A stretch of DNA of 64,000 nucleotides from a phage, in NCBI GenBank assembly GCA_027468165.1, contig GCA_027468165.1_3951.1; one strand, written 5' to 3'. Below, one piece after another: positions 1 through 12,243 of this stretch. The notes beneath the pieces are model-generated. The model made no database searches and was not told the DNA's origin. It worked only from the letters and a program-made list of their open reading frames with translations. A program made the position numbers and the translations under genes. Within the stretch, counting starts at the first letter, position 1; each line of letters opens with the position of its first letter.

Positions 1-17
1 AAAAAAAAAAAATTTTG

Positions 18-111
18 TTGACACTGGTTTTTAAATAGATTAAATTACTAATCAACGGGGAGGGGATGACCTTCCCCACTAAGTAAAACCCTTAAACTAG
101 GAGATTCAAAA
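18..111 (+). promoter_or_regulatory. Early promoter plus conserved leader cassette (copy 1): -35 TTGACA 18-23, 17-bp spacer, -10 TAAATT 41-46, 5' UTR hairpin ~57-77, SD GGAG, ATG at 112
   Basis: Sequence motifs read directly; the same ~75-bp cassette recurs upstream of three other ORFs. Confidence 0.55.
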
Positions 112-312
112 ATGGCTATTATTAACGGTTTAAACATTGAAACTACTCACATCAAAGATATCAAAGTAGGGGATATAGTCCTTTTTCACGGCGTAGAAAA
201 AACCGTCACGGCGAAAGACATCAAAGAGGATTCTTTCATGGGTCGGTCTCTCTTCGGTGATTCTTATTGCTTGGGCTATCGTGCAGTTTTAAAAGTTGTA
301 AAAAATAACTAA
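112..312 (+). CDS. Hypothetical early protein (66 aa)
   Basis: ORF track; strong SD (GGAG) 8 nt upstream within leader cassette. Confidence 0.6.
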   Translation: MAIINGLNIETTHIKDIKVGDIVLFHGVEKTVTAKDIKEDSFMGRSLFGDSYCLGYRAVLKVVKNN

Positions 313-402
313 TAAAGTACTTTACAAGGGGCTTATAGTTCGATAAAGTAAGCCCCAGATAAAGAGCTTTACCACTAAATCCTTAAACTAGGAGATTCAA
401 AA

Positions 403-945
403 ATGAAATGCTTTCACGGTACTACTCAAGAAAACTTCACCAACCTGATTAATAACGGTGATAAGCCATCAGGTGCATGGAATTGTTCGGATATGGACGG
501 CAATTTTTACGTGTATCCAGAAAATAAAATCTATGGCGACGATGAGGAAGAGATAATCTCTGAAGGTATCCAGCAAGCTCTGGGCAATGCCGCTATCACC
601 GCAGCTTTCCAGATGAAAACCCAAAACATTGTTATCTTGGAACTTGATATTCCAGAAGATGAATTAAATGATGATTATTCTTGTGATAATATGGCGAACG
701 TGGCAAGTTTTACAGAATATTTTGATTTAAACTGGATTAAAAAGGTTTACACCACTGAATTTAATGCTATGTTTTCACCATTTTGTCTGCCTTCACTGGA
801 TAACCCGAATTTAAACTATATTGACGAGTCTCTGGAACTTCTCGCTAAAAGCGTTCAACAGTCCGACAGTATTCAAGTTTTTTGTGACATCATGGACACA
901 CTGACGGGAAACATCGCAGAAGAGGATTTAAAGAGTTTTTTCTAA
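403..945 (+). CDS. Hypothetical acidic protein (180 aa)
   Basis: ORF track; preceded by the SD half of the leader cassette (CCTTAAACTAGGAGATTCAAAAATG). Confidence 0.6.
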   Translation: MKCFHGTTQENFTNLINNGDKPSGAWNCSDMDGNFYVYPENKIYGDDEEEIISEGIQQALGNAAITAAFQMKTQNIVILELDIPEDELNDDYSCDNMANVASFTEYFDLNWIKKVYTTEFNAMFSPFCLPSLDNPNLNYIDESLELLAKSVQQSDSIQVFCDIMDTLTGNIAEEDLKSFF

Positions 946-977
946 TAACCTATACAATCACCTTATAAACACTATTC

Positions 978-1000
978 AGCCCCTTGCAGGGGCTTTTAAA
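978..1000 (+). terminator. Intrinsic terminator-like hairpin (AGCCCCT-TGC-AGGGGCT followed by TTTTAAA)
   Basis: GC stem plus T-run immediately after ORF 403-945. Confidence 0.55.
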
Positions 1001-1011
1001 GGGCTTTAATC

Positions 1012-1245
1012 ATGCTTACAACCGTTTACCTTATCCTTTCCATCTGTAATGGTCATTCATGTGATTTTAAAGGTCTCGAGGAGTTTACAGGGAGTAAAGA
1101 AAATACTATTCAGGTTTGCCAGATAGCAAGGCAAGACTACCCCGCCAGTGATGATATACAATGTTATTTTAAGACAGAAGACAGCGACGGCGTTTATTTT
1201 GATAGCGTTGATGGTCAATATGAAATTATCATAGAAAAAGACTAG
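1012..1245 (+). CDS. Hypothetical protein (77 aa)
   Basis: ORF track; weak RBS. Confidence 0.4.
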   Translation: MLTTVYLILSICNGHSCDFKGLEEFTGSKENTIQVCQIARQDYPASDDIQCYFKTEDSDGVYFDSVDGQYEIIIEKD

Positions 1246-1334
1246 ACAAGCCTGATAGAAATCTGTAAATTACTAATCAACGGGGAGGGAATGACCTTCC
1301 CCACTAAGTAAAGCCCTAAACTGGAGTTTTCACA
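1243..1334 (+). promoter_or_regulatory. Early promoter plus leader cassette (copy 2): -35 TAGACA, -10 TAAATT 1266-1271, leader hairpin, SD
   Basis: Near-identical to the copies at 18-111, 2002-2093 and 2599-2689. Confidence 0.5.
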
Positions 1335-1481
1335 ATGTCAAATGCAGTTGAAACGGTTTTTAACAATCCGGTATTTTCAGAGATGATTTTCTCGTTTATC
1401 ATGATGTTACTTGTTAAAACCATGAAAAAGGCCGAAAAATTACACTCAAAGAAAAAAGCTATTGCAAACCGTTTTAAGTAA
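1335..1481 (+). CDS. Small hydrophobic protein (48 aa; below ORF-track size cutoff)
   Basis: ATG placed exactly where the leader cassette predicts; manual translation MSNAVETVFNNPVFSEMIFSFIMMLLVKTMKK... to TAA at 1479-1481. Confidence 0.45.
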   Translation: MSNAVETVFNNPVFSEMIFSFIMMLLVKTMKKAEKLHSKKKAIANRFK

Positions 1482-1529
1482 AGATATAGTATCAATCAAG
1501 CCCACTTCCTAAACTGGAGATTCAAAAAA

Positions 1530-1871
1530 ATGGCTTATGTAACCGTAGTAACCGATAAAGCGGATTCATCTTGGTCAACTCAAGTAAGTGATAAGATGAC
1601 ACCTATGCAGTGCCTAAAATACTTTGAGCAATGGAATAAAGGCGAGGATGTAAGCCCCTTCCAAGTAATGCAGATTATCCATACAGACGACGAAGGGATT
1701 AAAACGGTTTTAAATAGTGAGTACTATGCAACCAGATTTGAGACGAGATGTAAAACGATGAAACTATTACGTGAATCCGGTTACCCTCATATTGCCGCGC
1801 TAATCTGGGATGACTTGCTAAAAAATCAGCGTATCAGTTACGTAAAACCTGAAAAAATATTCATCAGCTAA
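1530..1871 (+). CDS. Hypothetical protein (113 aa)
   Basis: ORF track; preceded by SD half of the leader cassette. Confidence 0.55.
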   Translation: MAYVTVVTDKADSSWSTQVSDKMTPMQCLKYFEQWNKGEDVSPFQVMQIIHTDDEGIKTVLNSEYYATRFETRCKTMKLLRESGYPHIAALIWDDLLKNQRISYVKPEKIFIS

Positions 1872-1903
1872 TCAATAACTTACAAAAAACTTTTAAAAAA
1901 GTG

Positions 1904-1932
1904 TTGACAATACCCCTTGACATTGGTAATGT
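1904..1932 (+). promoter_or_regulatory. Putative sigma70-like promoter (A-tract, TTGACA, 17 bp, TAATGT)
   Basis: Motif AAAAAAGTGTTGACA shared with other promoters in the window. Confidence 0.4.
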
Positions 1933-2001
1933 TGTTCGAGGGGGTTTATCTTAAAGGGATTCACTTAAAAGATTTCTTTAAAGATAAGCTTAAAAAATTG
2001 C

Positions 2002-2093
2002 TTGCAATCAGATATCAAAGCAAGTAAATTACTAATCAACGGGAAGGGAATGACCTTCCCCACTAAACAAAGTCCTAAACTGGAGATTCTAAA
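2002..2093 (+). promoter_or_regulatory. Early promoter plus leader cassette (copy 3): -35 TTGCAA, -10 TAAATT 2025-2030, leader hairpin, SD
   Basis: Repeated cassette. Confidence 0.5.
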
Positions 2094-2624
2094 ATGAACA
2101 AATTTCAAGCTATCAACTATATTCGTTCCGTCAATGTCATGTCAAAGCCTGTAAAAGATACGTATGAATTTCGTTGTAATGGTGTACACTTCGCAACAAT
2201 CACCAAATCAGAAAACGGGGCTTATTACGTTCATCGCCGTAATGTTGCAACCGTTGTAGTCTCTCATTTTATGCAAGCTGTCGCGGAACTTCTCCCGATG
2301 TTTTTGGGTCTTTACTTGGATGAGTGTAAAAACGTTCATAATCACGTTAAAAGCCTTTTAAATAGTTATAAAATGGCTTATGAGCGTTCTATCAAGTCCT
2401 TAAACAAGTTTTACAACGCACCTGAAAATACTGTATCAATGGCCTACGATGTAAATGGTGAGGCGGTGAGTCTCTTTGAAGTGGAAAAAATCAAGCTGTA
2501 CAATTTACTCCCTAACGATTACGCTAAAACCATCGGTGAAGGTTTAACGTTCAATATCAAGAACTTAGAAAAAACTTTAAAAGATATTGAAAAAGACATT
2601 GACGAGACAATCAAAAATCTGTAA
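2094..2624 (+). CDS. Hypothetical protein (176 aa)
   Basis: ORF track; leader cassette upstream. Confidence 0.6.
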   Translation: MNKFQAINYIRSVNVMSKPVKDTYEFRCNGVHFATITKSENGAYYVHRRNVATVVVSHFMQAVAELLPMFLGLYLDECKNVHNHVKSLLNSYKMAYERSIKSLNKFYNAPENTVSMAYDVNGEAVSLFEVEKIKLYNLLPNDYAKTIGEGLTFNIKNLEKTLKDIEKDIDETIKNL

Positions 2625-2689
2625 ATTACTAATCAACGGGAGGGATAACCTCCCAACTAAATAAAACCCTTAAACTAGGAGATTCAAAA
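2599..2689 (+). promoter_or_regulatory. Early promoter plus leader cassette (copy 4): -35 TTGACG, -10 TAAATT 2622-2627, hairpin GGGAGG/CCTCCC, SD
   Basis: Repeated cassette; stem shows compensatory changes relative to the other copies. Confidence 0.55.
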
Positions 2690-2938
2690 ATGGCAACTAT
2701 CCGCGCAATTGTAAATTCTTATGGCTGCTACACTCTGGATGTTAAATTTGATATTGGTGGAACTGATGAATGCTTTTCCTTAGTGAAAACAGTTATCAAG
2801 CAAGTTATCCCAGATTATAACCCTACTGATGACTTCTGGAAAGATGCCGTGAAAGAGGCGTTAAACGATGAATACCATTACCATTACTGGGGTGATTTGA
2901 TTGTATCCCTGTACTACGATAAAAAAGGCACTAACTAA
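2690..2938 (+). CDS. Hypothetical protein (82 aa)
   Basis: ORF track; leader cassette upstream. Confidence 0.55.
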   Translation: MATIRAIVNSYGCYTLDVKFDIGGTDECFSLVKTVIKQVIPDYNPTDDFWKDAVKEALNDEYHYHYWGDLIVSLYYDKKGTN

Positions 2939-2976
2939 TCAACGCAGCGGGGCTAAAATAGCCCCAGATACCTTTA

Positions 2977-3027
2977 AAGCCCCTTTATACTGATTCGATA
3001 GAATCTATCTCATAGGGGCTTTTTTAC
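2977..3027 (+). terminator. Terminator-like hairpin (AAGCCCCT ... AGGGGCTT followed by TTTTTT)
   Basis: 8-bp GC-rich stem with a large loop then T6; downstream of the plus-strand early genes. Confidence 0.45.
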
Positions 3028-3097
3028 GTCCTATCAAATCCCTTCCCTTCCCCTTTCCAGAATCTATCCCACTGATTCGATAGAATCTATCTCATAC
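2990..3097. repeat. 25-bp direct repeat CTGATTCGATAGAATCTATCTCATA (2990-3014 and 3073-3097)
   Basis: Exact duplication read directly. Confidence 0.8.
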
Positions 3098-3396
3098 CTT
3101 AAAAGGCAATAACTTTACAGTTTACCCTATAGCCTTTTATTAAATCAACTTAAATATAAGCCCATAACCCGAAAGGGAAGGGCAACCATTTAAACGCCAT
3201 ATAAAGCCCTATAACGGCCTTATTAACATAACTTAAGGGATTGCATTACCTCACCCTTAAAAGCCCTTTATAAAGCTTTCTAGGGGCTTAAAAGAGCCTT
3301 AAAAGAATCTTATAAGGGTGTAAGCTTTATCATCTCGTTAGTATCTAGTGAATAACTAAAAAGGGCTTGTCAGTGTCTTAAAAGTATGTTATAGGG

Positions 3397-3429
3397 GCTT
3401 AAAAGTTGCTTAAAAGTAGCTTAAAAGTT
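3397..3429. repeat. Tandem 11-bp repeat GCTTAAAAGTW x3
   Basis: Three head-to-tail copies read directly. Confidence 0.8.
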
Positions 3430-3642
3430 ACGTAAATGCTAGCCCCCTTAACATTTTCTTAACAATTTCTTAACAAACCCTACATAGTTATGTTTGTTAG
3501 TAACTTGTTAGCCCCTTGTTAAATCTCTGTTAAAACCATGTAAAAGCCTTGTAAGAACCTTTGGCATAGCCTTTAAAGCCCCTGAAAAGCCCTGTAAGGA
3601 GGTGTCTGTATAGTTGGGGTGTAATTACTAGGGAGAGACTAA

Positions 3643-3683
3643 AAAGGGCTTATAAGGAGCTATAAAGGGCTTTTAAAAGGGCT
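3643..3683. repeat. AAAGGGCT x3 at 22- and 11-bp spacing
   Basis: Read directly. Confidence 0.7.
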
Positions 3684-3779
3684 ATTTAAAAGGTCACTAG
3701 GGATTGGTAACAATACCAATTAAGAGGGAAAGGGAACGATAAGACCAGAGATAGTGACCATGTTAATAGCTTGTTAAAA

Positions 3780-4040
3780 AGGTTAAACACTTGTTAGAAA
3801 CTTGTTAATTATCTTAACAAAATAACTCTTTAAAATTAACTTGTTAGCCCTTGTTAGTCATCTGTTAAGCCTCTGTAAAGACTATTCAGCACTTGTTAGG
3901 ATACTGTTACCCTCTTGTTAAAACTGTTAAGAATCTGTTAAGACCTCTGAAGAGATGTTAAAAGGTTGTAAGAACTGTTAAGAGATTGTTAATGATATTT
4001 TAAAATTCTGCAAAGGGGGTGTTAAGGAGCTGTTAAGGGC
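3780..4040. repeat. Cluster of more than 20 YTGTTAR(G) motifs, many at ~10-11 bp phasing
   Basis: e.g. ACTGTTAAGAATCTGTTAAGACC...ACTGTTAAGAGATTGTTAATG; a second looser cluster at ~4190-4460. Confidence 0.7.
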
Positions 4041-4487
4041 TACCAAGCAGATATACATCTTCTACAGATATTTTTGAGTTCCTTTAAAGACCCTAAAAAA
4101 TGACTTGATAGTTCTATTTTATAAAAAATTTAAAATTCTGAATAATTACCTAGACAGTCTTCTAAAAATACAGGCATAAACAGGCTTATAAGATACCTTG
4201 TTAATACCTTGTTAGACCTTGTGAGATAAGGTCTGTAAAGATATTCCTGTTAAGTTTGTTAAAACAGTCTATATAGAGGCTTAGTAATACCTAGTGAACA
4301 CCTATAGAGGTAACATAGCTAACCTAATGGGTTACTGTTAAGTAACACAGGTAACCTAGAGATTAAGAGGTGTATAGGAGCTTCTAAGAGGGTATAGAGT
4401 GATGGTTAAGGTGATTGTATAGGTTGTTAAGAAGGCTTGTTAGAGGGCTATTTAGAAGGACTATACAGAGGGGCTATTAAGACCACT

Positions 4488-4535
4488 AGATAGATACTAA
4501 GATACTATATAGTACTATATAACTATATATAGAGA
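4488..4535. repeat. AT-rich tract with TACTATATA-type repeats
   Basis: TAGATAGATACTAAGATACTATATAGTACTATATAACTATATATAGAGAG. Confidence 0.6.
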
Positions 4536-4665
4536 GTAAGCTTAAGAAGGTTGTTAAGAAGGGTAGATATTTTATTCACATATGATGGTGACCCAGAGGT
4601 TGGGACAACCGATAAAATTTTATAAAAATTGAAAAGCCCCCAATTAAGGAGGCTCTTAAGATATT

Positions 4666-5259
4666 TTAAACCAGTGTTTCCAGAACTGTCTTCAGTGATG
4701 ACTTGGTTGTCTGATAAAAATGAGTAAATCCATTGTTGTTATCAAATACCAGCATCATGATATCATCTCCATTAATTGGGTACACTCGGATATCATAGTG
4801 AAACCCATTAAAGACAGCAGAACCATTACAGAATGCACTAAAGTCATCCACTGAGATGTACTCTTCATGACCTGTGATTTTTATACAGATACCCTTACTC
4901 GGTCTCTTAGGGTTGATATCTTCCATCACAGACATACTCTGTCCACCAAGAGACACCATAGTGACTACTTTACGGTTCTTCTGTCTAAAGTACATCTTAA
5001 CTTTCTGTAAAGTGTCTTCATAGAACGGATAAGACTTCTCTACAAAGATTCCTTCAAGTGGCTCTTTACCGTTTACAATACCTCTGTTATGACGTACTGC
5101 AAAGATAATTTGTTGGAGCCAGTCAAGATTTTCTTCGGAGAGTGCTTCCCGAATATCATTCCAGTCAAGGACTAGGTAGTTGCCTTCAACCTCTTTTAAG
5201 TTATCTTTTTCCATATCTATCACACCATTATCGTAAAACTTGGTAATCTGGTACTGCAA
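4666..5259 (-). CDS. Hypothetical protein (197 aa)
   Basis: ORF track; first gene of a tightly packed minus-strand block. Confidence 0.5.
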   Translation of the reverse strand: MQYQITKFYDNGVIDMEKDNLKEVEGNYLVLDWNDIREALSEENLDWLQQIIFAVRHNRGIVNGKEPLEGIFVEKSYPFYEDTLQKVKMYFRQKNRKVVTMVSLGGQSMSVMEDINPKRPSKGICIKITGHEEYISVDDFSAFCNGSAVFNGFHYDIRVYPINGDDIMMLVFDNNNGFTHFYQTTKSSLKTVLETLV

Positions 5260-7430: not shown

Positions 7431-7774
7431 TACAGTTTCCTCATTAAATACTTTTTAAGTTGTGTGTTAGGCTTCTCAAAAACTTCTATAGAAGATATCT
7501 TAACAGATTCACCACGCATACCTGTATGTTTGAATATATAGTACTCTAACATACCTATATACTTTGCTGGTAAGTCATGCTTGACATACACCGTTACAGA
7601 ATCTTCAAATTCAACAACCTTTGTACCATCTTTGTAGTTAAACTCTTTAGGATGGTCGTATTTGTCGATGTCGTACATTAAAAAGAGTCTTTTCCGTTGC
7701 ATATCAAGCTTATTGGTTAAAGACTCTTTGATATCTGAGAAGTTTTTGTACACTGTGACATGGAGCTTACTCAT
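7430..7774 (-). CDS. Hypothetical protein (114 aa)
   Basis: ORF track; start/stop overlap with neighbours. Confidence 0.5.
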   Translation of the reverse strand: MSKLHVTVYKNFSDIKESLTNKLDMQRKRLFLMYDIDKYDHPKEFNYKDGTKVVEFEDSVTVYVKHDLPAKYIGMLEYYIFKHTGMRGESVKISSIEVFEKPNTQLKKYLMRKL

Positions 7775-8060
7775 CGTTAAACTCTCTGACGAAGAAATAG
7801 TTGACTTTGTTATTCCCTACCATAAGGTCAAAGCAGGTGTTCTCAAAAGGTTTGTTGTAGGCATCATATGAGGTGTATGTATCAGCTACTTGTTTAGTGT
7901 TGAGCTTTTTACTTGATGGATTTAAGAGGCCACCATACAGTTTCTTGATAGCCTCTTCTACAACAGACCAGATAATTTCGTCAGTAATTTCTTCGTACAG
8001 GTCAAGTTCACGCTCTAGTGAGAAGTCACAAATTGGGAAAATAACCTGTACTTTACTCAT
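7767..8060 (-). CDS. Hypothetical protein (97 aa)
   Basis: ORF track. Confidence 0.5.
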   Translation of the reverse strand: MSKVQVIFPICDFSLERELDLYEEITDEIIWSVVEEAIKKLYGGLLNPSSKKLNTKQVADTYTSYDAYNKPFENTCFDLMVGNNKVNYFFVREFNDE

Positions 8061-8455
8061 TAACGAATGACCTGTGTTACCTGAATAGCTTCAGTTACTG
8101 ACAAATCACCAACCGTTTCTTCTTTGACGAAGGTGAAGGTCAGTTCAATAGGCTCTTGCTCTTCTTGCTCAACAGGAACACCATTAAGCTCATCAAAGAT
8201 TGATTGAGTTGTCCAGTCTTCTCCACCATCTGGGTAGTGGATTGCGTAAAGTGGAAACTCTAAATTATACCAAGCAAAAACAGGGCAACCATCTGCATCA
8301 TCTCGGCATCTGTGAAGGCATGTGTTTGTACCTTCAAAATGCAAATGGAGATTACCATTCTCCTCAAAGATGAGAGCATCTTGCAGGTCTAGTTCCTCAT
8401 TTTCGCTGTAACGGCTGACATCGACTTTAACGTGAATATGACTGTTATTATTCAT
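8060..8455 (-). CDS. Hypothetical acidic protein (131 aa)
   Basis: ORF track. Confidence 0.5.
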   Translation of the reverse strand: MNNNSHIHVKVDVSRYSENEELDLQDALIFEENGNLHLHFEGTNTCLHRCRDDADGCPVFAWYNLEFPLYAIHYPDGGEDWTTQSIFDELNGVPVEQEEQEPIELTFTFVKEETVGDLSVTEAIQVTQVIR

Positions 8456-11714: not shown

Positions 11715-11765
11715 AAAGTTGTTGACAAAGGACTTGACAAGGTGTAGGCTTATAAATACTTAGAA
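11715..11765 (+). promoter_or_regulatory. Putative promoter region at the minus-to-plus strand switch (tandem TTGACA boxes, motif ACTTGACAAGGTG)
   Basis: AAAAAAGTTGTTGACAAAGGACTTGACAAGGTGTAGGCTTATAAAT; the -10 element is ambiguous. Confidence 0.35.
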
Positions 11766-11871
11766 GATTACTTAAAAGGTTCCTCTAAAAAGGCTATTTA
11801 AACAGATATCTTTCTGGATATCTATCTTTTATCTTAAAAGCCTTTTAAGAGGTCTTATAAGAGGCATACCA

Positions 11872-12243
11872 ATGAAAAACAGAACAAACAAAGGCCAGTT
11901 TAAAAAAGGCCAGTCTGGAAACCCATCTGGAAGACCAAAAGGCTCTCGTAACAAAAGCTCTCTCGTAAAAGCTCAACTGACCATTGATAATTCTGCTGAG
12001 TTTGCTGCAAAGCTGTTTGAGGCGATTGTTACAAGGGACGCTGCTAAGCTTGCAGAGTTCGGTTTGACGACTGACGATGTAAACCTGAAGTCAATGATGG
12101 AAGCTGGTAAAACTATCATGACCCACTCAGCAGGTGAGATGAAAGCAATTGCAGCAGACACTAAGAAGACTCCTGATAACGGTGGTCAACAACAGACAGA
12201 TAACAAACCAACGTTCTCTGCTGTAGCAACTCTCAAAAAATAA
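11872..12243 (+). CDS. Small basic protein with N-terminal GNPSGRPKG motif (123 aa)
   Basis: ORF track; motif recurs in many uncharacterised phage proteins, function not assigned here. Confidence 0.5.
   Translation: MKNRTNKGQFKKGQSGNPSGRPKGSRNKSSLVKAQLTIDNSAEFAAKLFEAIVTRDAAKLAEFGLTTDDVNLKSMMEAGKTIMTHSAGEMKAIAADTKKTPDNGGQQQTDNKPTFSAVATLKK

Follow-up and report, generated by a model that had tools for sequence, protein, structure and literature searches.

Promoter and stem-loop cassettes repeated through the early gene array of a Felix O1-like phage

Felix O1 has neither an RNA polymerase of its own nor known specificity factors, and its temporal control has been stated to be unknown (PMC3185647). 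How the early genes of such a phage could be organized for expression is the question raised by the phage DNA analyzed here, contig GCA_027468165.1_3951.1, the whole of which (64,000 nucleotides) we call the window. Near its 5′ end, small genes are preceded by repeated cassettes that combine a promoter-like sequence, in most cases a hairpin, and a Shine-Dalgarno (SD) sequence. We consider it probable, at roughly 70%, that these cassettes are composite regulatory modules, each joining a sigma-70 early promoter, an RNA stem-loop and a consensus translation start in the manner of promoter-early stem-loops (PeSLs), and that they also serve as recombination linkers. What is directly observed is that the cassette recurs, that its promoter geometry is kept, that the hairpin is conserved, covaries and is asymmetric between the strands, and that gene content at the borders of cassettes is mosaic. 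Similar cassettes are known from T4-like phages, and our literature search found no earlier description of those in Ounavirinae.

The best match of the window is Salmonella phage SP116 (93.6%); 258 phage records match, and by sequence the window is a Felix O1-like myovirus of the genus Felixounavirus (Ounavirinae). When annotated relatives are compared, the 5′ end of the window falls in the middle of an array of plus-strand small hypothetical genes. This array lies 3′ of rIIA/rIIB, polynucleotide kinase, the spanins and a phosphatase/macro-domain gene, has intergenic gaps of ~85–90 bp all along its length and ends at a ~1.7-kb non-coding region. Each full-length array that we sampled holds 8–18 cassettes, found only 3′ of the phosphatase/macro-domain gene, and within the window they are restricted to positions 1–2700. 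Used as a blastn query, the cassette matched 1385 places in 251 phage records, with Escherichia, Salmonella, Shigella or Citrobacter as hosts except for one record named as a Staphylococcus phage. That record (GU169904, "Staphylococcus phage SA1") gave the best cassette match; it is a Felix O1-like sequence with 8 cassette copies, and its host attribution looks doubtful. The loci that we fetched belong to Felixounavirus, Mooglevirus and Suspvirus. Our comparison set was the window plus 12 relatives, making 13 genomes from these three genera, together with one Kolesnikvirus genome. From the 13 genomes, the 115 nt 5′ of every match to the SD half of the cassette were extracted, which allowed 65 copies of the commonest window form, type A, to be parsed.

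Promoter and hairpin of the type-A cassettes

In the window, type A comprises four near-identical copies that run in the order -35, 17-bp spacer, TAAATT, G-run/C-run hairpin, SD and ATG. A preliminary description of this DNA had placed four such copies before the ATGs at 112, 1335, 2094 and 2690, and both the coordinates and the repeat counts were confirmed:

18–114, plus strand: type-A cassette 1; -35 TTGACA 18–23, -10 TAAATT 41–46, predicted start about A54/A55, hairpin 57–77 (GGGGAGGG-GATGA-CCTTCCCC, 8 bp including one G·U pair), AGGAG 99–103, ATG 112
1243–1337, plus strand: type-A cassette 2; -35 TAGACA 1243–1248, -10 TAAATT 1266–1271, hairpin 1282–1302, ATG 1335
2002–2096, plus strand: type-A cassette 3; -35 TTGCAA 2002–2007, -10 TAAATT 2025–2030, hairpin 2041–2061 (plus strand, 7 bp, register off by one), ATG 2094
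2599–2692, plus strand: type-A cassette 4; -35 TTGACG 2599–2604, -10 TAAATT 2622–2627, hairpin 2638–2654 (plus strand, short: GGGAGG-GATAA-CCTCCC), ATG 2690

The 19-mer TAAATTACTAATCAACGGG occurs exactly four times in 64 kb, always on the plus strand and within the first 2.7 kb, where 0.03 occurrences would be expected. The 25-mer of the SD block, CCTTAAACTAGGAGATTCAAAAATG, occurs three times against an expectation of 0, and cassettes 2 and 3 have the variant CCTAAACTGGAG.

A consensus scan scored three of the four copies as sigma-70-like with a 17-bp spacer, and copy 3, which matches 8 of 12 positions, fell just below the threshold. The variable -35 and constant spacer noted in the preliminary description extend to the relatives, with this geometry kept in 64 of the 65 copies from 13 genomes; the sole exception is a recombinant "empty" cassette without its -35. 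The -35 hexamers are TTGCAA (20 copies), TTGACA (14), TTGACG (11), TTGACT (8), TAGACA (6), TTGATT (4) and TTGACC (1), and the -10 hexamers are TAAATT (32), TAAAGT (18), TAGTAT (7), TAATAT (7) and TAAGTT (1), all of the form TAnnnT. Spacer sequences are unrelated across array positions, and some, such as that of copy 4, are C-terminal codons of the upstream gene. Across genera, only TAnnnT and (A/T)TCAAC are conserved in the 19-mer block while the remainder varies, and the 22 nt 5′ of the -35 are 78% A+T against a background of 62%. Fixed geometry and fixed key bases on a variable background are as predicted by selection for a host sigma-70 promoter, an arrangement that simple repeat inheritance would not predict.

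The invariant 19-mer and the GGG that follows it could also be read as a promoter specific to the phage and used by a dedicated or modified RNA polymerase, with T7-like logic. A highly conserved ~19-bp block ending in GGG(G)AGGG bears a superficial resemblance to the promoters of single-subunit RNA polymerases. We judge this very improbable, as Felix O1 is without an RNA polymerase or a recognized specificity factor (PMC3185647), TTGnnn stands exactly 17 bp upstream in 64 of 65 copies, and the block varies across genera outside the two motifs just named.

All hairpins of the window copies are minimum-free-energy folds of the segment from the -10 to the tail (-12.7 to -16.8 kcal/mol, z-scores -2.5 to -3.5). 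The 65 copies contain 37 distinct hairpin sequences, all of which start folding at the same first G and form stems of 4–8 bp, with variants that include GGGGAGGG/CCTTCCCC, GGGAGG/CCTCCC, GGGGC/GCCCC, GGGC/GCCC, GGGA/TCCC and GGGGAAG/CTTCCCC. The distance from the -10 to the start of the hairpin, which follows the conserved (A/T)TCAAC, is exactly 10 nt in 60 of 65 copies. The loop, which had been described as the four nucleotides ATGA, is really 5–6 nt long (GATGA, AATGA or GATAA). As a side observation, one copy in phage fjerdesal (L002, 5636–5715) contains 13 consecutive G, and its 3′ arm is garbled (GGGGGGGGGGGGGAAATGCCGGACCCC); this is likely a homopolymer error of sequencing or assembly, or slippage.

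The hairpin had also been proposed to covary, and the covariation scoring bears this out. A covariance model built from ten window-like copies recovered 69 copies at E-values up to 6e-5, all on the plus strand; a cutoff of 1 mixed in copies of the other two cassette types, and the stricter value was used for the count. Standard pairs fill 96.9% of the cells in the resulting alignment, and all 37 sequences pair. The covariation score is 0.111, compared with 0.060 for shuffles (none of 500 reached the observed value) and 0.024–0.049 when the partners were slid. Double changes occur at two pairs; pair 22–54, for example, is AU in 42 sequences, CG in 5, GC in 2, GU in 2 and UG in 1. The GGGAGG/CCTCCC stem of copy 4, put forward as a compensatory change, is real and consists of the loss of one G·U pair from both arms, a change that recurs in relatives.

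Three features bear on the strand and molecule in which the hairpin would act. The commonest pair at one position is G·U (39 sequences), which on the other strand would become A·C, a mismatch; tetraloops of sequence GAAA or GAGA occur in the copies from Mooglevirus and Suspvirus; and all copies are oriented as the genes. Together, the dominant G·U, the tetraloops and the orientation point to a structure in sense-strand RNA rather than in DNA. In the record of phage KhF2 (L005, KT184314), each type-A hairpin is overlaid by a minus-strand feature annotated "Rho-independent terminator", for example at 12040–12060, which would make the hairpins terminators of minus-strand transcription. This we regard as extremely unlikely, given that no minus-strand genes converge on the array, that the stem would hold an A·C mismatch and that the tail GTTGATTAGT is not a T-run; the annotation is probably a prediction artefact.

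Nor do the hairpins resemble terminators on the plus strand. The 8 nt past the stem contain only one or two T in 61 of the 65 type-A tails, and a single T in all 65 tails of the second cassette type, and a scan with a terminator consensus flagged none of the cassette hairpins. Lacking a T-run, they fall outside the definition of an intrinsic (rho-independent) terminator. A scan of window positions 1–5000 with Rfam covariance models, at E-values up to 1, gave no match.

An outer helix, UUACU/AGUAA, was predicted around the hairpin in copies 1 and 2. It was rejected, as it is absent from copies 3 and 4 and likewise unsupported by linker variants such as GTCAATCAAC.

Type-B and type-C cassettes, the translation start and the place of the hairpin

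The genes at 403 and 1530 had been described as carrying only the SD half of the cassette. Both have promoters of their own, which define two further types:

313–405, plus strand: type-B cassette; -35 TTTACA 321–326, 17-bp spacer, -10 TAAAGT 344–349, SD, ATG 403
313–371: long bipartite hairpin of type B; outer helix 313–318/366–371, middle helix 320–324/360–364, inner helix 328–336/348–356
1462–1532, plus strand: type-C cassette; -35 TTGCAA 1462–1467, 17-bp spacer, -10 TATAGT 1485–1490, no hairpin, ATG 1530

In type B the inner hairpin, GGGGCTTA...TAAGCCCC (328–356), covers the spacer and the -10, and is followed by AGATAAAGAGCTTTACC and the SD. All 65 copies of this type have TTTACA; 59 have a 17-bp spacer and 6 an 18-bp one. 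There are ten different TAnnnT hexamers, with the TA in the hairpin loop, and 35 hairpin variants, all of which fold. Folding of 313–405 gives a ~58-nt three-helix hairpin (z = -5.3), and RNAalifold returned the same three-helix structure from 42 distinct copies of four genera, with GC-to-UA compensation at two pairs (31 versus 7 and 38 versus 4) and dominant U·G wobbles.

By this modeled fold, the ~58-nt hairpin may be an RNase III-type processing site. Phage T7 has intercistronic RNase III sites in its early region, and hairpins of the repetitive extragenic palindrome (REP) type act as 3′ stabilizers; the present cassettes are similar in placing conserved hairpins free of T-runs between early genes, and type B in forming a ~20-bp helix with internal loops. 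It is therefore conceivable that the stem-loops are processing and stability punctuation of a polycistronic early RNA, with RNase III cutting the type-B helix or RNase E the A/U-rich flanks, and cleavage leaving a protective 3′ hairpin on the upstream message. The intercistronic position and the absence of a T-run suit this idea, as does the agreement of RNAalifold, reached independently, with the single-sequence fold. However, type-A stems of 4–8 bp are too short for RNase III, the cassettes differ from those systems in carrying promoters, and a role in RNA alone leaves the promoter-like hexamers and the invariant loop TA of type B unexplained. We think it unlikely as a general account of the cassettes.

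Type C has a promoter and no hairpin, and its tail, ATCAATCAAGCCCACTTCC, looks like a Suspvirus-type copy of type A minus the 5′ arm.

All types share the translation start. AGGAG or GGAG stands 8 nt before the ATG in six of six window cassettes, the type-A consensus being CCT(T)AAACT(A)GGAG-N8-ATG. The preliminary description had called this SD block invariant; it is common to essentially all small early array genes in the three genera sampled in depth, and the single Kolesnikvirus genome has a related form. In predicted transcripts the probability that the stretch from SD to AUG is unpaired was 0.43–0.66 for all cassette types and did not discriminate those with a hairpin from those without.

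Two indels in perfect linkage divide the SD half into two forms, with 105 copies of CTAAACT-GGAG, 31 of CTTAAACTAGGAG and no mixed form among the 136. In the window, sites 90–103, 381–394 and 2668–2681 are set apart in this way from 1314–1325, 1507–1518 and 2073–2084. The TT/A form is found only in Felixounavirus and, in a small CC..GG helix reaching the SD, provides one further pair (U-A).

A more speculative proposal treats the stem-loops as cis-acting RNA elements for a dedicated host or phage factor. Type B would then be its processing site, type A a 5′-end shield, and the near-invariant 25-nt translation start a shared operator for array-wide shut-off of a RegA- or RegB-like kind. We offer this only tentatively and expect that it is wrong; if true, the early array would combine an RNA-punctuation regulon with an integron-like platform on which small host-takeover genes are exchanged.

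The place of the hairpin relative to the promoter varies. In the homologous array of Erwinia phage Panisse (Kolesnikvirus), there are type-B cassettes with GGTG...CACC, a compensated change, and other cassettes where the hairpin surrounds the -10 (TTGACA-N18-TAAAAT, in the loop) and the leader is unstructured. Thus the -10 comes before the hairpin in type A, the type-B hairpin covers both spacer and -10, and the Kolesnikvirus one encloses the -10. In every cassette type that has one it lies just past the upstream stop codon, and similar subclasses of stem-loop position exist among PeSLs, one of which cut expression of a downstream lacZ as strongly as rrnB T1 (PMC2839356). These points favor stem-loops that act mainly on transcription arriving from upstream, as attenuators, terminators or insulators, with the 5′-end position in type A incidental. 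On the other hand, the cassette hairpins lack the T-run and escape the terminator scan, while the same array does have hairpins with such a run:

978–998, plus strand: hairpin AGCCCCU..AGGGGCU followed by UUUU; in contrast to the cassette hairpins, this has the form of a canonical intrinsic terminator
2976–3025, plus strand: hairpin AAAGCCCCU...AGGGGCUUU with UUU after it, located where Felix O1 has terminator t23

In addition, the type-A hairpin stays 10 nt from the -10 even in copies with a replaced hairpin sequence. An action mainly on upstream transcription is a serious possibility that we nonetheless lean away from.

We return to the reading of the cassettes as PeSL-like modules, whose promoter activity, start site, stabilizing or insulating role and recombination mechanism we infer from sequence. 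An A/T-rich tract would be followed by a sigma-70 promoter (TTGnnn, 17 bp, TAAATT), the (A/T)TCAAC start region, the hairpin, an A-rich linker and the translation start. Transcription by the host RNA polymerase would begin with the A located 8 nt past the -10. Initiation at the usual 7–8 nt past the -10 gives a transcript beginning 5′-(C)AAC-hairpin, with the stem 2–3 nt from the 5′ end, so that the geometry of the -10 plus 10 nt would put the type-A hairpin in the 5′ untranslated region (UTR). Escherichia coli mRNAs are protected from 5′-end-dependent decay when about three unpaired nucleotides or fewer precede a stem at that end, and the ompA 5′ UTR was reportedly shown by Emory, Bouvet and Belasco in 1992 to be an mRNA stabilizer of this 5′-terminal stem-loop kind. 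The type-A hairpin resembles it as a stable stem a few unpaired nucleotides from a predicted 5′ end, independent of sequence (37 variants here); it differs in that the start site here is a prediction and sister cassettes do without a 5′ hairpin. We hypothesize that the 5′-proximal hairpin most likely shields the cassette's own mRNA from 5′-end-dependent decay, and that in read-through RNA from upstream cassettes it would form an intercistronic barrier or insulator. As hairpin position differs by type, the common denominator is a stem-loop placed after the stop codon of the upstream gene and before the SD of the downstream one; this is probably an element of stability or insulation at the RNA level and in type A would also cap its own transcript.

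Several points weigh against this reading. The -10 TAAATT matches the consensus at only 4 of 6 positions, and no extended -10 accompanies it. Since the copies are homologous and exchange sequence, their counts are not independent. Double-sided changes affect only two of the eight hairpin pairs, the outer 3–4 being an essentially invariant G-run and C-run, and the covariation score comes from related copies in an alignment fitted to the structure. Type-B and Kolesnikvirus hairpins lie upstream of the predicted start site, and the hairpin is lost while promoter and SD are kept in Citrobacter phage HP1 (L007, 12665) and at window 1530. The upstream hairpins and hairpin-less copies indicate that a 5′-terminal position is not required for cassette function and that a role in the 5′ UTR is not the sole possibility. 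The timing, too, is mixed. By endpoint RT-PCR in Felix O1, ORFs 16, 20, 21 and 22 peak at 5 min, whereas ORF19 and ORF23, which have type-A cassettes in front, peak at 25 min (PMC3185647). The label "early" given to the cassettes thus has partial support from experiment, through ORF21 and ORF22 as homologues of the genes at 1530 and 2094, but not through ORF23, the homologue of that at 2690 (PMC3185647). Finally, our literature search found no start mapping, RNA-seq, promoter-activity or RNA half-life data for the Ounavirinae cassettes. The Felix O1 genome paper lists both repeat families merely as "direct repeats", outside its promoter count (PMC3185647), the paper on phage wV8 does not mention promoters, terminators, repeats or intergenic regions, and the promoter counts given for AYO145A and UAB_Phi87 are program-predicted only.

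Gene exchange at cassette borders and comparison with known systems

The proteins encoded 3′ of each cassette were clustered into families and their gene order was tabulated. The array genes of the window are as follows:

112–312, plus strand: early open reading frame (ORF) of 66 aa, family 18
403–945, plus strand: early ORF of 180 aa, family 10
1012–1245, plus strand: ORF of 77 aa, PHROG 4640; its stop TAG 1243–1245 is the first three bases of the next -35
1335–1481, plus strand: ORF of 48 aa, family 20
1530–1871, plus strand: early ORF of 113 aa, family 13, homologue of Felix O1 ORF21
2094–2624, plus strand: early ORF of 176 aa, family 15, homologue of Felix O1 ORF22
2690–2938, plus strand: ORF of 82 aa, family 17, homologue of Felix O1 ORF23, final gene of the array

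All seven matched only PHROGs of unknown function and had no Pfam match. Families 1, 4, 5, 9, 11, 12, 14, 16, 18, 19, 20 and 21 are present or absent between cassettes, set in a conserved backbone. The 48-aa gene (family 20) lies behind a cassette in the window, SP116, SFPB and SUSP2, and does not in the other nine genomes, which include fjerdesal, KhF2, VpaE1, Mushroom and Felix O1; in the first four of these the same type-A cassette stands directly before the 113-aa gene. This distribution marks the 48-aa gene as a cassette-flanked indel. Cassette types are also swapped on the same gene, as family 13 has type C in 5 genomes, type A in 5 and type B in 2. Within Felixounavirus, paralogous cassettes are 88.4% and orthologous ones 90.3% identical, and the nearest neighbor of a cassette is often a non-orthologous copy; by these comparisons the cassettes do not track their downstream gene. 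Modules of ~70–95 bp that are near-identical would offer crossover points for homologous recombination, at which genes would be gained, lost and re-promoted among relatives.

Two "empty" tandem cassettes, in which the ATG is fused to the next module, were seen at 8009–8170 in SP116 (L001) and 7435–7521 in Michonne (L003). To judge from their sequence, they look like footprints of gene excision or unequal crossover.

Such exchange invites the explanation that the repeats are in essence recombination scars, linkers or selfish mobile modules, kept similar by gene conversion, with the hairpin a DNA-level signal that has no part in expression and is recognized, for example, as a single strand in the manner of an integron attC site. 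Concerted evolution, empty junctions and cassette-flanked indels fit it, and the PeSL authors speculated on a protein that targets the GGGG...CCCC motif (PMC2839356). Yet gene conversion would not hold TTGnnn exactly 17 bp upstream in unrelated, partly coding sequence, nor keep TAnnnT while positions 3–5 vary; GNRA loops would go unexplained, and the G·T pairs, being A·C mismatches on the other strand, speak against a cruciform. Strand asymmetry is a property of integron attC sites too. Like those, the cassettes hold short imperfect palindromes beside single promoter-dependent ORFs that are gained and lost as units, but no integrase-like recombinase is linked to the array, each cassette has its own promoter, and homologous recombination between near-identical modules explains the exchange. 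On balance, a purely recombinational origin seems improbable to us. The integron comparison was already made by the PeSL authors (PMC2839356).

The modules taken here as the model, PeSLs, occur in the T4-like myoviruses RB49/phi1, T4/PST and KVP40/nt-1 (Arbiol et al. 2010, PMC2839356; Comeau et al. 2014, PMC4122927). They consist of a stop codon in an A/T-rich tract, a sigma-70-like promoter (-35/N17/-10), a G(n)-loop-C(n) stem with G·T pairs, and SD and ATG (PMC2839356, PMC4122927). The present cassettes share the A/T-rich tract, the sigma-70-type N17 promoter, the G(n)-loop-C(n) with G·T pairs and the SD and ATG at the 3′ end. They also share subclasses of stem-loop position, clustering before ORFans in a hyperplastic region, and indels at cassettes between relatives. 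Type A approaches the RB49-type consensus TTGACA-N17-TATAAT with G(n)...C(n), and type B fits the T4/PST promoter consensus TTTACW-N17-TAYWAT (PMC4122927). There are differences as well. The -10 is weaker here (TAAATT or TAAAGT), the type-A hairpin is fixed 10 nt past it and predicted to be transcribed, type B is a much longer three-helix structure, and the translation-initiation half is near-invariant across genera. Experiments on PeSLs have demonstrated promoter and terminator activity and the formation of mini-circles (PMC2839356); the cassettes here are described from their sequence. They occur in the subfamily Ounavirinae, with no blastn similarity outside Felix O1 relatives (the record named as a Staphylococcus phage among them), so that they would count as PeSLs by architecture and not by descent from T4-like phages.

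Upstream stop codons at or just before the promoter are a further likeness. The preliminary description had the stop inside the -10 in three copies, which is strictly true of copy 4 alone, where the last codons of the 176-aa ORF hold the -35 and spacer and its stop TAA 2622–2624 is half of the -10. In copy 2 the stop TAG 1243–1245 instead begins the -35, the only ORF ending in the -10 of copy 3 is a doubtful 36-aa one with a TTG start (1917–2027), and the gene upstream of copy 1 is outside the window.

Felix O1-type phages are widely used for typing of Salmonella and E. coli, biocontrol and therapy. With 8–18 cassettes per genome, the array gives a concrete, testable map of early transcription and explains the high variation of small early genes from isolate to isolate; these genes likely have host-takeover or anti-defence functions. 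The cassettes are also compact natural expression modules for engineering such phages. They extend the "modular shuffling" idea proposed for PeSLs beyond T4-like phages, which suggests that, for virulent myoviruses dependent on the host polymerase, such a design is a general solution.

Other features of the array and neighboring sequences

The 77-aa ORF at 1012–1245 is conserved, is the sole array gene without a cassette, has a poor SD and lies directly 3′ of the hairpin at 978–998. Before cassette 3, the spacer at 1872–2000 is unusually long (~130 nt) and structured, with TTGACA-N17-TAATGT and a CCCCT...GGGGG hairpin (z = -3.8); the SP116 annotation has a 34-aa ORF in the equal region.

The hairpin at 2976–3025 marks the end of the plus-strand early array. 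An exact 26-bp direct repeat, ACTGATTCGATAGAATCTATCTCATA, occurs at 2989–3014 and 3071–3096, and its first copy is in the loop of this hairpin, where Felix O1 t23 has a short loop. Beyond the array, positions 2940–4660 form ~1.7 kb of non-coding sequence between the plus-strand early array and minus-strand genes, rich in short repeats with 10–11 bp phasing (TGTTAAGAAC, GCTTAAAAGTT and others). Since the record of Citrobacter phage HP1 has a 570-bp terminal repeat annotated at the equivalent place, this region may hold the genome ends, a packaging site or an origin.

At the other end of the array, outside the window, SP116 (L001, 4720–4910) has several repeated TGTGCAGGTA-like boxes 5′ of the first cassette. 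They sit in a ~500-nt non-coding region that extends from the terminator of the phosphatase gene to that cassette. Lastly, two overlapping TTGACA hexamers (TTGTTGACAAAGGACTTGACAAGGTGTAGGCT) at window ~11750–11800 are kept in Felixounavirus, Mooglevirus and Suspvirus; they lie at a divergent junction before a DUF2828/"RNA-binding protein" gene and represent a promoter class other than that of the cassettes.

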